Assembly (NCBI GenBank): GCA_023245155.1
Contig: JAHFKV010000001.1
Location: forward strand, 11,034 to 75,033
Length of the DNA: 64,000 nt
Source of the DNA: Candidatus Staskawiczbacteria bacterium
GTDB lineage: Bacteria > Patescibacteriota > Minisyncoccia > Minisyncoccales > Staskawiczbacteraceae
Reading direction: 5' to 3'
The notes beneath the pieces were generated by a model. That model was not told the origin of the DNA. It saw only the letters and a program-made list of their open reading frames with translations, and did not search any database. Both the position numbers and the translations under genes were made by a program. Of the stretch, positions 3,742 to 60,318 are shown piece after piece (the first letter of the stretch is position 1; each line of letters opens with the position of its first letter).

Positions 3742-4217
3742 TTAAATTTAACCGGCACGATAACTGTTTTATCTTTTGCCGGATCACCACTGGCGTTTTC
3801 GTTGTGAAATACCAACGATCCTGTGGCAATGGCGGGGGCTGGGAATATTAGCGTGGTTTCAAAATTTGTTGGCAGTTGAGTCCACTCCGTAATAGCAGTA
3901 AGTGGGCCCTGTGCCAAAACCGCACCGTTTGCATCCAGTAATTCCACTCCTCCCACCTGTCCTTCAAACCCATTCCAGCCATTGCCACGCACCACGCCAG
4001 TAATTTTTAGAGGAGAAGACACCACTTCATTTGGCTTTGGTGAAAAAACTTCTATATCAGCAGGTGGCGGGGACTGGAGAACCGTTTCTTTATGTACGGG
4101 CCAAAATAAAACTACAGCCAGTGCCAAAATAATGATTGCTAAAACGATAACGATTAGCATTTCCTTTTTCATATCTGCATCATAACCTGAACAATCCACA
4201 CCTGTAAACATTGACAC
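3738..4217 (-). CDS. membrane-anchored Gmad2 immunoglobulin-like domain protein
   Basis: TM helix then SPLKITGVVRGNGWNGFEGQVGGVELLDANG pattern; true start may be the internal MKKEM (4172). Confidence 0.55.
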   Translation of the reverse strand: MSMFTGVDCSGYDADMKKEMLIVIVLAIIILALAVVLFWPVHKETVLQSPPPADIEVFSPKPNEVVSSPLKITGVVRGNGWNGFEGQVGGVELLDANGAVLAQGPLTAITEWTQLPTNFETTLIFPAPAIATGSLVFHNENASGDPAKDKTVIVPVKFK

Positions 4218-31080: not shown

Positions 31081-31572
31081 ATGAACCTGCAAGGTCTCAA
31101 TTTCAATTTCGCAGAAAATATCGCCAAGACCATCCAAAACCTGCTCAAGCTCAGGCAATTCCCTCAGGACAGAAGGGGTGTGATATTTGGGAGTGCTCAT
31201 GCGCTACTCCCTGACACGCTCCTCGTTCAGCTCCTAGTTGGGGATTTACCAGCGGAAAGGGCGATACGATTTACCGGCTTCATGAAAGAAAAACTGAATC
31301 GCTCTTCCCAGCACAAAGACCATACAAGCGGCTACCAGAGTGCAGATTTCTCCGACGATCCAACCCGCGACCACAAGATGTACCCTGGTGCAATCACGAC
31401 GCCATCAGGGATCATCTTGTCCTGTTCGGGGGCGCCCTGGCAATGCGACGAACTGATTAATGCGATTGCAGGAGTCAATGCCAAGCTTATGGATGAAGCC
31501 CACGCATACGAAGTCGCAAAGATCAGCAAGAACGAGTGGTTCGACCTGTATCTCAACAAATTCGGCTGGTAG
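31081..31572 (+). CDS. orphan protein in GC-rich island 2
   Basis: 163 aa ORF with promoter, AAGGA SD and terminator; alternative start at 31282 (MKEKLN) if the antisense 31003..31200 ORF is real. Confidence 0.5.
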   Translation: MNLQGLNFNFAENIAKTIQNLLKLRQFPQDRRGVIFGSAHALLPDTLLVQLLVGDLPAERAIRFTGFMKEKLNRSSQHKDHTSGYQSADFSDDPTRDHKMYPGAITTPSGIILSCSGAPWQCDELINAIAGVNAKLMDEAHAYEVAKISKNEWFDLYLNKFGW

Positions 31573-31594
31573 ACATACTGCCAGACTGAATCAT

Positions 31595-31626
31595 AGCGAA
31601 CGCTCGCCCCGTTCGCTGTTTTTTTT
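31595..31626 (+). terminator. rho-independent terminator of island-2 ORF
   Basis: AGCGAACG-7 nt loop-CGTTCGCT then G + T8. Confidence 0.8.
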
Positions 31627-31641
31627 CAATACTTCACTTGC

Positions 31642-31791
31642 GTTTTAAGATTTAGTTTCCAAAGTGGCTCTCGCAGGCGAAAAAGCATGGTTTTTCGTGC
31701 AAAGACACGAAAATTTTTCGCTGAGAGTGCAGGGCGAAAAATCTCGCTGGAGATTTTTACGCCTGGCACTTTGGGGGCTAAATCTTAAAAC
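31642..31791 (+). repeat. three-way-junction structured repeat, copy A (candidate ncRNA)
   Basis: shares the conserved core with 47463-47641 and 60172-60296; 25-bp continuous closing helix; compensatory differences. Confidence 0.85.
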
Positions 31792-31823: not shown

Positions 31824-33218
31824 TTACGTATTCTTAATGTCATTATATACTTTCTGTAAAATTGCGACCATGGCGTAGGTGTCGCGCTTGCAGTATTCAA
31901 GCATATCGTGTTTTAATCTTTCGCGCTGAGTGGGTGGGGTTTTTTCACTGGTCATTTCCGGCCAGCTGGCAGAAGCCGTTTCCCCTTCCTGGATGGCTAA
32001 GTCTTTGTAAGATAATTCCGGGCACAAGACGGGTAAAACCACTTTTAAGGAAGCTAATTTTTTAAATTCACTTTTGGTGTACAGCTGATTTTTAAATTTA
32101 AACAAGAGCATAAGGTCAAACATCCGCTCATTCATAGAATTCAGTAAATCAGAAAATTCCGGATATTCGGCAGCCATTTCGTTGTTGCGCCCCGTTTCAA
32201 AAGGGGCAAACCAAACAATGATGCTGCCTTTTGGCCCTACATCCTTGGCTAACTTCTCTAACAATTTAAGCAACGGATTTTCAAACGCATCCGCTAAAAA
32301 ATCAACGTGCTTGGGTTTTGCACCCGGGGCTTCTTGGATATGCACAGAATATTGGAATGGAATTTGCTGATAAGGCTTGGTGCCGTCAAAGGGCGGAATA
32401 GCATAATTATACGTTTCATAATCAAAAAAATATAAGGGGAATTTCAGCTTGGCCAATTCGTGCTTGATACCTTCAATATTAATTTGGGTGAACGCAACGG
32501 GCGGCTTGAAACCTAGTTTTTCCAAAAGCGCGGCAGGAAGCTTGCGGTAATCCAAAATTTCACGCTCAAGCAAGTGGGCTAACTGGGTTGGCTGGATATT
32601 TTCTGCCAAAGGATAAATACCCTCTGACATTTTAACGTAATATTCCAAATAATCGCAGTATTTAGGATTTTTGCAAGCATTAATCAAACTTATGCTCGGC
32701 TCATCGGTAATATCCATAATTTTCAAAGCGCGCTGTATTTCATCTTTAATTTCGGGCAGCAATTCTTCCACTTCTTCGGTAATATCTTCAACTTCAAAAA
32801 GCTCAACAGGATTAATGGCGCCATGGCGGACATAGTTTCCATTAATATGCACCAATTTCAGGCGCCCAATTTTTTTGCCCGCGTTTTCAAAACAGATTTT
32901 CTGGAAACCCAAATCATACAAGTATTCTTTTTTGACTTTGGTGGCCATTTTTACTTCGTGCATGTCAAAGAAGCCACCAGCAGCGGGAACTAACATGTCC
33001 GCCCGGGCAAGTAGTTCCCCGGCGGTGGCAGTGGGCTGGATCAACACTCCCGAATCCACGGGAAATAATTGCTTAGCCAGCTCATCTACTTCTCTCCCGG
33101 CCGCCAAAATCCGTTCTTTTTGGGCGTCGTCATCGGGCAACTGCTCGGGCCGGTGTTTGGAAAGCCACAAGTACATGGGGCATTCCAAATAATTCATAAA
33201 ATCGGTTTTAGTTAACAT
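31824..33218 (-). CDS. DUF2779-type protein (Cas4-like nuclease N-terminus)
   Basis: MLTKTDFMNYLECPMYLWL start typical of DUF2779; 464 aa. Confidence 0.65.
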   Translation of the reverse strand: MLTKTDFMNYLECPMYLWLSKHRPEQLPDDDAQKERILAAGREVDELAKQLFPVDSGVLIQPTATAGELLARADMLVPAAGGFFDMHEVKMATKVKKEYLYDLGFQKICFENAGKKIGRLKLVHINGNYVRHGAINPVELFEVEDITEEVEELLPEIKDEIQRALKIMDITDEPSISLINACKNPKYCDYLEYYVKMSEGIYPLAENIQPTQLAHLLEREILDYRKLPAALLEKLGFKPPVAFTQINIEGIKHELAKLKFPLYFFDYETYNYAIPPFDGTKPYQQIPFQYSVHIQEAPGAKPKHVDFLADAFENPLLKLLEKLAKDVGPKGSIIVWFAPFETGRNNEMAAEYPEFSDLLNSMNERMFDLMLLFKFKNQLYTKSEFKKLASLKVVLPVLCPELSYKDLAIQEGETASASWPEMTSEKTPPTQRERLKHDMLEYCKRDTYAMVAILQKVYNDIKNT

Positions 33219-46447: not shown

Positions 46448-47122
46448 TTAATTCTTAATAGTTTCAATTACTTTACCATCGTCAATCCTCACAATTTTTT
46501 GCGCCATTTTGGCGTACTGTTCTTCGTGCGTCACCATAATAATGGTTTGGCCTTCGGCGTGCAATTCCTGAAAAATTTCCATGACAATCGCGCTCGATTC
46601 GTTATCCAAATTGGCGGTTGGCTCGTCTGCAAATAGAATAATCGGATGATTGGCAATTGCCCGGGCAATGCTGACACGCTGCTGCTCCCCGCCGGAAAGT
46701 TGGCTGGGTAAATTATTCAGCCGATGCGACAATTTCACTTTTACCAACGCATTTTTGGCACGAGTATAGGCTTGTGCTTTTTCCATATCTTCCATTAACA
46801 GTGGCAACACCACATTTTCCAACGTTGTCAGCTCTGGTAACAAAGCATAGTCCTGAAACACGTAACCGCATTTTTTCAATCTAAATTCCGTTTTTTCTTC
46901 CGGTTTCATGTTGTGGGCATGCTTTCCATCAATAATAATTTCGCCGCTGGTTGGTTCATCCAGCAAACTCATTTGATAAAGCAGAGTACTTTTCCCCGCG
47001 CCGCTTCTACCCATAATGGCAATAAATTCCCCTTGAGCTGCCTTAAAATCAATGCCTTTTAGCACATTGGTAACTTTATCCCCGTCGGTAAATGATTTGG
47101 TTAATTGTTTAGTTTGAATCAT
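46448..47122 (-). CDS. ABC transporter ATP-binding protein (MacB/LolD type)
   Basis: [24 protein letters not shown]. Confidence 0.93.
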
Positions 47123-47136
47123 ATGTTATGAGAAGA

Positions 47137-47165
47137 TTGATAATGCTAATTTTTTATTATATGAT
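47137..47165 (+). promoter_or_regulatory. candidate sigma70 promoter of island-3 ORF
   Basis: TTGATA-17 nt-TATGAT. Confidence 0.5.
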
Positions 47166-47207
47166 AGATTAAGTTTAGATTAAGTATTCCCAACTCCGAG
47201 GAGAACT

Positions 47208-47384
47208 ATGTTCAGACAAATCCTTTCTGTGATTTCGGCAGTGGCAGCCGTGATCCTACTGATCTGGACCCTGGGAAACACAGAGCCAGACAGCCTTGCA
47301 AGGTGTCTCAGCGTAGGAGGCGAGGTTGTACTGATAGGCGGTTATGCCGTCCTTGCGGGAAAGCATGCTCGGTTCTTAAGTTAA
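47208..47384 (+). CDS. 58-aa hydrophobic peptide in GC-rich island 3
   Basis: not in the track; GAGGAG SD 5 nt upstream; MFRQILSVISAVAAVILLIWTL...VVLIGGYAVLAGKHARFLS; terminator follows. Confidence 0.55.
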   Translation: MFRQILSVISAVAAVILLIWTLGNTEPDSLARCLSVGGEVVLIGGYAVLAGKHARFLS

Positions 47385-47406
47385 GACCTTGCTATCATTC
47401 ACTCAG

Positions 47407-47440
47407 GCCCACACGAAACTCAAGTAGTGTGGGCTTTTTT
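47407..47440 (+). terminator. rho-independent terminator of island-3 ORF
   Basis: GCCCACAC-12 nt loop-GTGTGGGC + T6. Confidence 0.8.
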
Positions 47441-47462
47441 CTTGCATAATTTTCAATCCACA

Positions 47463-47641
47463 TTTGCGAATCGGTGTGAGTTCTGAAAGTAACTCTCGGA
47501 GGCGATTTGGCACGGTCGGTGTGGTGTAATAATTCGACAGAATTAGTATACCACACCGCAAATCGCCGAGAGCGTAGGGCAAAAAATCTCGCTGGAGATT
47601 TTTATGCCCGGTACTTTCACGGGCTCACATCGGTTCGCAAA
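47463..47641 (+). repeat. three-way-junction structured repeat, copy B (candidate ncRNA)
   Basis: same core as copies A and C; 18-bp outer helix with two G-T pairs. Confidence 0.85.
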
Positions 47642-47642
47642 C

Positions 47643-48896
47643 CTAATTCCTCCCCAAAATACTATCCAACGTATTTTTTCTGACAATCATTCTACTTGGA
47701 ATATATCCTGCAATAATAGTGGAAATAATCAACAGGGCCATGCGCACTAGGGTTTCCCCCAGCGGCGCCACTAAAATACCATCGGAAAAAGGAAAATTAA
47801 TGGGGTGAGCCACAAATAAAGGGACTAAAACCACGTATACCAAAATCAGCCCCACAATTGACCCCACTAGCGCGTAAAAAATTGACTGAAACATATACGA
47901 AAACTCAATCGCTTGGCCATTAATGCCAATGCCCTTTAAAATACCAATAAATTTGCGGCGCGTCAGCGCATTAATAAAAATCACAATAAAAATAGTAATG
48001 GAAGAAACCACCAATCCAATGCTACTTAAAAAGTTTCCCAAAGTTCTAAAGGTGGCCACAATATCTTTTAAAAACTGCGGCTGGGCGTCGGCATAGGTTT
48101 GCACTTTAGCGGATTTATCAATACCGGCCAAAATTAACTTTTGCTTAAAAGCAATCGGGTCCACGCCATTTTTTAACACAATGGCAATTTGGCCCACGTT
48201 GCCATCATCCCGCCCAATTAAACTTTTCACTTCCGAATCAATCATAAAAATTCCGCGCCGCACATTGTCCACTTTACTGCGTAAAATGCCTTTCACCGTC
48301 ACCTCGCGCATGACACCATTCACACTAATCCTAATTTTAGTCCCCACGTACACATTTTTTAATGACTGAAAATCCGGGCTATCAATCGCCACATATTGCT
48401 TAAGCAAAAAATACCCCACCAAAACTTTATCATAATCATTGGGCGTCAAATAATTTCCTTCCAGCATATGACCCGAAAGGCCGGTGACCGAATTTTCATC
48501 CGCCGGGTTTATGCCAATTAATTGGGCCGAGGCGGTGTTGGCTTTGTCAGTTTCTTTTTTGGTTTGGTAATTGGCTTCCACCAAAGACCCGCTGGTATAA
48601 CGCGCGGAAAAAGACTTCACATCCGGCATATCTTTTAAAATATTTATAATATTCGGACTGCCTTCAATGTAAGCTTTGTTGTCCAAACTGGAAATAATTA
48701 CATCACCCGTAAATTGAGCGTGATAGGCCGCAATTGACCCTTCAATTAACCCCACCAAAATTCCGCTCACCACCACCAAATTCAAAAACGTTAAAATCAT
48801 CACAAACACAATCAGCCCCGTAGTCCAAGGGTTTGATCTTCTAATCTGCCTCCAGGCAAGAAAGAAACCGATTTTGATGTTTAAAAGTATTGACAT
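47643..48896 (-). CDS. ABC transporter permease (FtsX/MacB type)
   Basis: 417 aa, N-terminal TM, large periplasmic domain, C-terminal 3-TM FtsX domain. Confidence 0.88.
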   Translation of the reverse strand: MSILLNIKIGFFLAWRQIRRSNPWTTGLIVFVMILTFLNLVVVSGILVGLIEGSIAAYHAQFTGDVIISSLDNKAYIEGSPNIINILKDMPDVKSFSARYTSGSLVEANYQTKKETDKANTASAQLIGINPADENSVTGLSGHMLEGNYLTPNDYDKVLVGYFLLKQYVAIDSPDFQSLKNVYVGTKIRISVNGVMREVTVKGILRSKVDNVRRGIFMIDSEVKSLIGRDDGNVGQIAIVLKNGVDPIAFKQKLILAGIDKSAKVQTYADAQPQFLKDIVATFRTLGNFLSSIGLVVSSITIFIVIFINALTRRKFIGILKGIGINGQAIEFSYMFQSIFYALVGSIVGLILVYVVLVPLFVAHPINFPFSDGILVAPLGETLVRMALLIISTIIAGYIPSRMIVRKNTLDSILGRN

Positions 48897-55276: not shown

Positions 55277-55294
55277 GAATTTGGAGCGAAGGCA

Positions 55295-55348
55295 TTCTTC
55301 CAAAAGAGCTCCTCGGAGGCGAGCCGCTTTGTCGGCTCGCTGAGAGAG
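55295..55348 (+). repeat. partial (5' half) copy of the three-way-junction repeat
   Basis: TTCCAAAAG-AGCTCCTCG-GAG-GCGAGCCG-CTTTGT-CGGCTCGC-TGAGAG; no P3 and no 3' P1 arm. Confidence 0.55.
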
Positions 55349-55417
55349 AAGCAAATTTTTCTATATCGTTGTGGAAAAATTATGCTGTATCTTTTGGGGG
55401 AATGCCCAAGCAAAATG

Positions 55418-56326
55418 CTAAATTTGCATGTCTCTTAATGCTTTAACCCTTTCCTCAATAGGTGGGTGGGTGGAAAATAACTTTACGAACCAGCTGCCTT
55501 TGCCAGAATCTTCTTTAAATGGAGATTCAATGTATAAATGCGAAGTGGCGGTGTTAGCGCTTTTCATGGGAGTTGGGTCGGCTGCAATTTTTTCCAGTGC
55601 GCTGGCCAGGCCTTCCGGGTAACGCGTCAAAAGCGCTCCATCGGCATCCGCTAATGATTCTCGCTTACGAGAAATGGCTAACTGCAACAGGGTGGCTGCA
55701 ATCGGCGCCAAAATGGCTGCAATTAATCCGGCAATCATTAAAATAGCGGCAGCGTTGTCGCGGTCGCGCCCGCGGGCGCGACCGCCCCCAAAAAAACTAA
55801 TCCGCAAAAAAAAGTTTGCCAAAAGCGCCACCACGCCCGCCAGCACCACAACCACCGTACTTAAAAGCATGTCTTTATTGCCGATATGCGACAGTTCGTG
55901 AGCAATTACGCCCTCTAATTCTGTTTTATTTAAACGCTGCAAAAGCCCGGCAGTTACAGCGACTACCGCATGATTTTTATCGCGCCCCGTGGCAAAAGCA
56001 TTTGGCTGCATTTCTGGAGTAATGTAGATTTTAGGAACGGGCAAGCCCGCGGTAATGCACAAATTTTCTATAATCCGGTATAGCTCCGGATTATCTGCCT
56101 TCTGGATTTCCTGCGCTCCGGCCATGCTCAAAACAATTTTATCTGAAAACCAATAACTGCCAATACTCATGGCAACACTCAAAATAACCGCAAACACCAA
56201 AATAGCATCGCTTTGTAATGCCTGCGAAAACAGCCAGCCGATAGCAATCACAAACACCAAAAACCCAGTTATCAAAAACCATGTTTTACGAGTATTAGAA
56301 TCTGCTTGTGTGTAAATTGAAGCCAT
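55418..56326 (-). CDS. htpX: M48 zinc metalloprotease HtpX
   Basis: HELSHIGNKD zinc motif, 4 TM. Confidence 0.92.
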   Translation of the reverse strand: MASIYTQADSNTRKTWFLITGFLVFVIAIGWLFSQALQSDAILVFAVILSVAMSIGSYWFSDKIVLSMAGAQEIQKADNPELYRIIENLCITAGLPVPKIYITPEMQPNAFATGRDKNHAVVAVTAGLLQRLNKTELEGVIAHELSHIGNKDMLLSTVVVVLAGVVALLANFFLRISFFGGGRARGRDRDNAAAILMIAGLIAAILAPIAATLLQLAISRKRESLADADGALLTRYPEGLASALEKIAADPTPMKSANTATSHLYIESPFKEDSGKGSWFVKLFSTHPPIEERVKALRDMQI

Positions 56327-60138: not shown

Positions 60139-60171
60139 TTAAGATTTATGATTTAGGATTTATGAAGCGAC

Positions 60172-60296
60172 GCGTCAGTTTCCAAAGTAGCTCTCGGAGG
60201 CGATTTTGCAGGTCCCGCGAAGCGGGAAAATCGCCGAGAGGCGCAGGGCAAAAATCTCGCTGGAGATTTTATGCCCGGTACTTTGGGGGCTGATGC
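60172..60296 (+). repeat. three-way-junction structured repeat, copy C (candidate ncRNA), in the groES-groEL spacer
   Basis: core identical in architecture to copies A and B; 189-nt spacer. Confidence 0.85.
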
Positions 60297-60318
60297 AGAG
60301 CGAAATACCCGCACGCAA

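Follow-up and report, generated by a model that had tools for sequence, protein, structure and literature searches.

A probable family of small, structured mobile elements in Patescibacteria, lying antisense behind stop codons

The window analysed here, that is, the whole stretch of 64,000 nt, carries four copies (A to D) of a structured element of 137–179 nt, and several other contigs hold at least two. Copy A (31642–31791, +) is flanked on one side by the terminator of a + strand orphan gene of 163 aa and on the other by a DUF2779/Cas4-like gene on the − strand, the stop of which is at 31824. Copy B (47463–47641, +) lies 1 nt past the stop codon of an FtsX-type permease gene (47643–48896, −). 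Copy C (60165–60304, +, including its terminal motifs AAGCGAC...AGAGCGAA) is found in the groES–groEL spacer, antisense to both genes. Copy D (55284–55420, +) lies between the genes for an M48 peptidase and BacA, and ends in CTA, which reads on the − strand as the TAG that stops the M48 gene.

Three of these copies had been described in the initial annotation, at 31642–31791, 47463–47641 and 60172–60296, and were recovered there, all on the + strand; the fourth and divergent one, copy D, had been missed. A covariance model built from 12 family members and run on the window without filters gave 115 bits for copy A, 103.5 for copy C, 97 for copy B and 29.3 for copy D (E = 5e-6 with filters off; model span about 55285–55412). 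The P3 20-mer AAAATCTCGCTGGAGATTTT occurs exactly three times in the window and not once in 100 shuffles.

The predicted folds of copies A, B and C reproduce the originally proposed three-way junction of helices P1, P2 and P3, with energies of −73.9, −102.8 and −69.6 kcal/mol and z-scores of −10.0, −12.9 and −8.0, respectively; for copy A, the fold of the − strand is less stable than that of the + strand by 11 kcal/mol. In copy A, P1 is 25 bp long, including the 13-bp outer helix already reported, and is followed in order by P2a, a CAG bulge, P2b, a one-sided bulge of 7 nt (GCAUGGU, 31685–31691, +), P2c, and then P3, of which the P3b hairpin (31738–31757, +) reads AAAAUCUC-GCUG-GAGAUUUU. Copy B has a P1 of 28–29 bp and a long P2c. 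The paired differences between copies A, B and C that were first pointed out can all be read in their sequences: GTG/CAC against GTA/TAC and CC/GG against TG/CA in P1, three variants of P2b, and GGGCG/CGCCT against GGGCA/TGCCC in P3a. The accompanying claim that mispairs on the + strand are wobbles is likewise accurate, since copies A–C carry 16 G-U pairs and zero A-C 1 × 1 mismatches there. Copy D retains P1, P2a, a GAG bulge, P2b and P3a but neither P2c nor the GCAUGGU bulge, and its P3b is another hairpin, capped by a UCGU loop; it folds alike and favours the same strand (−64.6 kcal/mol for the element strand, −51.6 for the other). Identity among the window copies is only 67–81%, so that none is a recent copy of another, and this was counted against a mobile origin.

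Homologs were located by searches with P3. Of ten exact 20-mer matches in 185,579 species genomes, seven mark true homologs, every one in a Patescibacteria MAG (two Saccharibacteria contigs, Yanofskybacteria, Liptonbacteria and unclassified members), and the remaining three are chance matches in coding regions of other phyla. A metagenome scan with a P3 18-mer gave 75 loci, 28 of them with the element. Altogether, about 30 distinct homologs come from Patescibacteria MAGs and metagenomes, and the covariance model also recovers members with other P3 stems, beyond the reach of the search pattern. Phage and plasmid collections gave no blastn match to copies B and C, and in viral contigs the P3 18-mer had two matches, both by chance in coding regions.

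Individual folding of about 25 distinct members gave the same plan. P1 is mostly 18–23 bp; P2 consists of P2a, a 3-nt SAG bulge, P2b, the one-sided 7-nt bulge GCAYGGU and a variable hairpin, P2c; the P2–P3 junction closes with GYAG; P3a has a bulged A, P3b ends in a C-GCUG-G loop, and a GG junction returns to P1. The element matches no Rfam family, and none had been recognised in the initial annotation. Searches of Rfam 15 at the gathering score found only two tRNAs in the window; in 21 related loci they gave, besides tRNAs, a single group I intron and a single fragment of 16S rRNA, and with E values up to 10 nothing was found on the element in copies A and B and three other members. A resemblance to known structures (SRP Alu domain, retron msr/msd, Chi, CsrA sites, K-turns and self-cleaving ribozymes) was supported neither by a model match nor by the anatomy. 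A pairing of the 5′ flank with the P3 loop region (CUCGCU/AGCGAG) was also discarded, as it shows no covariation in the P3 variants. Full-text literature searches turned up neither a MITE or REP-type element nor the present motif in CPR/Patescibacteria.

Compensatory evolution, first claimed from copies A–C, extends across the family. In a model-made alignment of 32 distinct sequences, which by being fitted to the model favours structure somewhat, standard pairs fill 88.6% of cells, compared with 31–53% when the 3′ partners are slid by 1–3 columns, and double-sided changes occur in 32 of the 35 pairs. The covariation score is 0.60, against at most 0.15 for every slid control, and none of 500 shuffles reached the observed pairing or covariation values. 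A plain MAFFT alignment already has double changes in 26 of the 35 pairs. The P3b stem covaries in members found by the model alone.

Two unpaired motifs are nearly or fully invariant. Positions G, C, G and G of the GCAYGG bulge are kept in 31–32 of the 32 distinct members, although this bulge was never part of the search pattern. The GCUG loop and its closing C-G pair are kept in 32/32. Between closely related pairs of copies there are nine changes to or from G-U, three to A-C, and seven double compensations. Behind trxB, orthologous copies in Saccharibacteria are separated by two to three double compensatory changes, suggesting that pairing is also maintained in place, which is not required of a purely selfish element.

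The fold is specific to one strand, as first proposed from the + strand of the window. The element strand is the more stable in 33/33 copies (by a mean of −9.2 kcal/mol), and over the same copies it has 83 G-U pairs and four A-C 1 × 1 mismatches, against 37 and 26, respectively, on the opposite strand. Because the + strand of the window is C-rich (GC skew −0.04 to −0.17), mutation pressure should yield A-C mismatches there, not G-T. The bias is opposite to this expectation, which argues for selection on the element strand in single-stranded form, either as RNA or as DNA. The helices are kept by compensatory change on that particular strand.

The element persists almost solely antisense, right behind the stop codon of the upstream gene, and at times supplies the stop itself. 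By the ORF scan, 29 of 31 distinct copies are antisense to the genes on both sides. Copy A is antisense solely to the gene that it abuts, and is preceded by a + strand gene. The element's 3′ end points towards the stop codon of the upstream gene, from which it is separated by a median of about 1 nt (range −21 to +76), and in a dozen cases the ORF enters P1 and terminates there; the distance to the next start codon is far more variable. The abutted genes are ordinary and often highly expressed: groES, the FtsX-type permease and the DUF2779 nuclease-like gene in the window, and elsewhere those for enolase, L11, S7, L14, L16, EF-P, SHMT, MreB, FtsZ, RpoC, ribonucleotide reductase, PheS, thioredoxin reductase and glutaredoxin. 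Members of one subfamily adjoin different genes in different genomes. At locus L048, the element (577–731) is antisense inside a 16S rRNA gene (652–1043, −), beside a group I intron (69–586, −); this insertion is at about E. coli 16S position 788/789, between the exon and the 5′ end of the intron, so that the element must leave together with the intron.

Upstream of copies A and B on the + strand are genes with a terminator hairpin, the 163-aa orphan and an ORF of 58 aa, respectively, and these two copies therefore sit between convergent genes. The orphan gene (31081–31572, +) is on the minority strand of the window and has a strong terminator (31593–31627). Its product matches nothing in Pfam, NCBIfam or PHROG, and has a single homolog among 5.8 billion protein clusters (a related MAG, 75% identity). 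The 58-aa ORF belongs to a cassette of about 330 nt (47121–47450), between the ABC ATPase start and copy B, that is absent in relative L092. It comprises a + strand promoter-like site (47137–47165, TTGATA-17-TATGAT), the hydrophobic ORF (47208–47384), and then a hairpin with a T-run (about 47405–47440), and is flanked by an 8-bp near-repeat, TTTGAATC (47113–47120) and TTTCAATC (47451–47458). This cassette has the look of another insertion, separate from copy B. The one PHROG match of the ORF, to TciB-like proteins, is weak (E about 0.01), and Pfam and NCBIfam gave none. The family has no small ORF that recurs upstream of the element on its own strand: there are only spurious antisense ORFs, and the 58-aa gene is genome-specific.

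The element has inverted termini. According to the initial annotation, each copy extends P1 with an outer helix of unrelated sequence, which holds within the window only; family-wide, the termini are conserved as imperfect inverted repeats, AGCGAGGCAAT at the 5′ end and TTGCCGAGCG at the 3′ end (the pair may also be written AGCGAGGCAAT/ATTGCCGAGCG, the ends reading AGCGAGG.../...CCGAGCG). The terminal consensus, AGCGAGGCAAT...TTRTTGCCGAGCG, is kept by 17–28 of the 32 distinct members per column, and is degenerate in copies A and B. A constant GA stands opposite GA in the termini, forming a tandem of G-A on the element strand and of U-C/C-U on the other. Watson-Crick or wobble pairs take their place in copy B and in members L001 and L013 (in copy B in the Watson-Crick form, TTTGCGAA/TTCGCAAA), and this complementary replacement indicates that the terminal motifs belong to the helix and not to a duplicated target. 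A 4-bp duplication made up of the flank motifs was ruled out by the Watson-Crick replacements in these three copies, and AGCGAG/CGAGCG was dismissed as a genomic target because it is not enriched in the window.

GroEL similarity places the genome of the window near Candidatus Staskawiczbacteria. Comparison with homologous regions from relatives (GroEL identity 84–91% or permease identity 82–85%) shows that all four sites of the window are empty in relatives, and the covariance model found no copy in about 67 kb of these regions. Against two relatives, copy D is a clean insertion of 145 nt with CAAATT on either side. In both relatives the stop of the M48 peptidase gene overlaps the BacA start (...CAATTATGACT...), and in gene sense the insert begins with the TAG that now ends the peptidase gene. 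Alignment with the two empty sites places the 6-bp duplication at 55278–55283 (AATTTG on the + strand, CAAATT in gene sense) and 55421–55426. At the site of copy B, relative L092 has 1 nt between the permease stop and the ABC ATPase start; copy C is missing from the groES–groEL spacers of L088, L089 and L090; and at the site of copy A, L094 has the same terminator of the 163-aa gene with no element after it. The element inserts into new sites, and one of these insertions duplicated 6 bp of its target. Copies A, B and C show no target duplication. When every copy was scanned for direct repeats in its flanks, the result was not clearly above a null of mismatched flanks, so the 6-bp duplication stands on copy D, with L016 (TTTAAT) and L061 (CGATAAA) as further candidates.

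These results bear on the early statement that the element is not a MITE, which does not stand against inverted termini, empty sites at all four positions and a 6-bp duplication. It had been added that a MITE would have conserved termini and target duplications and no compensatory substitutions. Conserved termini and one target duplication were found, and the compensatory changes are also present. Neither the scanned genes of the window nor the fetched loci yielded a transposase or other autonomous partner, and no unattached termini were present in 93 fetched loci.

The element is probably a member of a previously undescribed family of small (about 125–180 bp), non-coding, non-autonomous, MITE-like structured mobile elements that is confined to CPR/Patescibacteria, and of which the folded single strand would be recognised by a putative factor. 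A putative trans-acting protein would recognise the folded element strand, either as a cruciform or single-stranded DNA arm or as a low-level antisense transcript, with the invariant GCAYGG bulge and C-GCUG-G loop as its likely contact points. Such recognition, for mobilisation or processing, would hold the fold under selection. Insertions in the sense orientation within operons would be lost because the recognised fold would appear in mRNA, and a closed hairpin at a stop codon may, of all insertions, do the least harm where the genome is very compact, as the neighbouring cistrons stay adjacent. A MITE moved as double-stranded DNA by cut-and-paste has no known need for an internal three-way junction, and the connection between fold and mobility is thus one that we infer.

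The genomes of CPR/Patescibacteria are tiny and tightly packed, and their non-coding and mobile DNA is almost unstudied. The family would be a case of a mobile element surviving with almost no spare DNA, helped by its site at stop codons, its own stop codon, its closed hairpin and its single orientation. Two unpaired motifs that are invariant phylum-wide, together with a strand-specific fold, point to a putative protein partner, and should its substrate be RNA or single-stranded DNA, its mode of action would be novel among bacteria. A further and more tentative proposal is that a CPR-specific enzyme, acting on the folded single strand, uses the three-way junction with its GCAYGG bulge and C-GCUG-G loop as its recognition module. 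The family might then represent a new mechanistic class, moving via an RNA/cDNA intermediate (a bacterial SINE-like element) or a template-strand DNA hairpin, or might have been recruited by hosts as a modular antisense regulator of the abutted gene. The covariance model could be used to flag such insertions in the annotation of MAGs, where they alter ORF ends by extension or truncation and may sit in rRNA genes.

Each copy could instead be the gene of a structured ncRNA, transcribed from the + strand and antisense to its neighbours, with a host role such as cis-antisense control of the abutted gene, the protein-binding junction serving as a scaffold. The strand-specific fold with its wobble bias, the strong covariation and invariant unpaired motifs, the compensatory changes between orthologous copies, and the element 3′ end always facing a gene 3′ end would all suit an RNA gene. 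Yet on the element strand copies A–C are neither preceded by a sigma-70-like promoter nor followed by a suitably placed terminator, no consistent + strand signals were found around them, and copies A and B lie directly downstream of the + strand terminator hairpins of other small genes. These signals argue against an independent RNA gene and are compatible with low-level antisense transcription. Such a gene is also at odds with the emptiness of all four sites in relatives, the patchy distribution (the seven true homologs among ten exact P3 matches in 185,579 genomes, all Patescibacteria) and the inverted termini with a target duplication, and we regard it as unlikely.

Equally doubtful is a role in the sense of the mRNA, as a domesticated or tolerated intercistronic or 3′-UTR hairpin that protects the message, serves as an RNase III site or couples stop and start. 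Copies do lie inside operons that are certainly co-transcribed (groES–groEL, rplN, rplP, rpsG, rplK), the element begins at the stop codon, the opposite strand retains a good fold of −47 to −84 kcal/mol, and double compensatory changes are strand-neutral. However, in every copy the wobbles are on the other strand and become A-C mismatches in the mRNA sense, as the terminal G-A tandem becomes a U-C/C-U tandem; the better fold would be expected in the sense orientation and is found in the reverse one, and there is no consistent U-tract downstream.

Least likely of all is a single-stranded DNA recombination substrate of the kind of an integron attC site or an IS200/IS605-type palindrome, in which an enzyme recognises a folded template-strand hairpin: like attC, the element lies directly 3′ of an ORF and often overlaps its stop codon, folds on the strand antisense to that ORF, conserves structure above sequence and has a variable apex, but it has no RYYYAAC/GTTRRRY boxes (the R/L box consensus) and forms no cassette arrays, its neighbours are core housekeeping genes in conserved synteny with no integrase among those scanned, and its 6-bp duplication varies between copies, unlike a recombination core. 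IS200/IS605 elements carry separate subterminal hairpins and lack inverted termini and duplications, both of which are present here, and their active strand is on the lagging-strand template, whereas the C-rich folded strand of the present element is, by GC skew, the leading-strand template.

As a MITE-like family, the elements share several properties with the Correia/NEMIS elements of Neisseria, ERIC and RUP, being small, non-coding, dispersed and multi-copy, with inverted repeats at their ends, insertion polymorphism, a short target duplication (clear here for one insertion), the capacity to fold over their whole length as a hairpin and a location in transcribed intergenic regions. They differ from these MITEs in having an internal three-way junction with two covarying local hairpins, unpaired motifs that are invariant across phylum-level CPR lineages, a strict wobble strand bias, a nearly constant antisense position abutting a stop codon, and no known parent IS. 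REP/REPIN-RAYT systems are similar in being intergenic palindromes at gene 3′ ends, in the compensatory evolution of their stems, and in their presumed action as folded single strands that a protein recognises in trans. REP units, however, are paired sequences of 20–40 nt with a GTAG head, are species-specific, occur in hundreds of copies and make no target duplication, whereas the present unit is a branched fold of 125–180 nt with few copies per region, conservation across lineages of phylum level and one clear 6-bp duplication. The likeness to eukaryotic SINEs is one of analogy only: both are short and non-autonomous, with an RNA-type fold, target duplications and an antisense bias in transcription units, but an RNA intermediate, internal promoter, A-tail and reverse transcriptase partner are features that the present family is not known to have.

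Five contigs of metagenome sample Ga0265292 (L039, L049 at 3760–3950, L059, L074 and L083) carry an unrelated repeat of five or six consecutive 10-bp hairpins with GTACG(T/A)A spacers, one hairpin of which (ATGAAATCTCGCTGGAGATTTCAT) coincides with P3b; its model score is only 30–33 bits. Two copies that are 96% identical, L005 5763–5898 and L064 252–387, abut genes for RmuC and pyruvate phosphate dikinase, respectively, and have about 12 nt of 5′ flank in common (ATTTTTAAAC); either the element is longer at its 5′ end in that subfamily, or a rearrangement has occurred at the element boundary. Derivatives of the element occur as truncated tandem copies and as one form without P3. The tandem arrays lie behind efp in two Liptonbacteria-like contigs (L003 1458–1773 and L087 1856–2170), and consist of one complete copy and one or two upstream copies truncated at their 3′ ends, each unit starting with AGCG(T/G)AGC. 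The form without P3 (L045 4393–4491, −) is a 99-nt derivative behind a glutaredoxin gene, and retains the conserved termini and a P1 of 19–20 bp.
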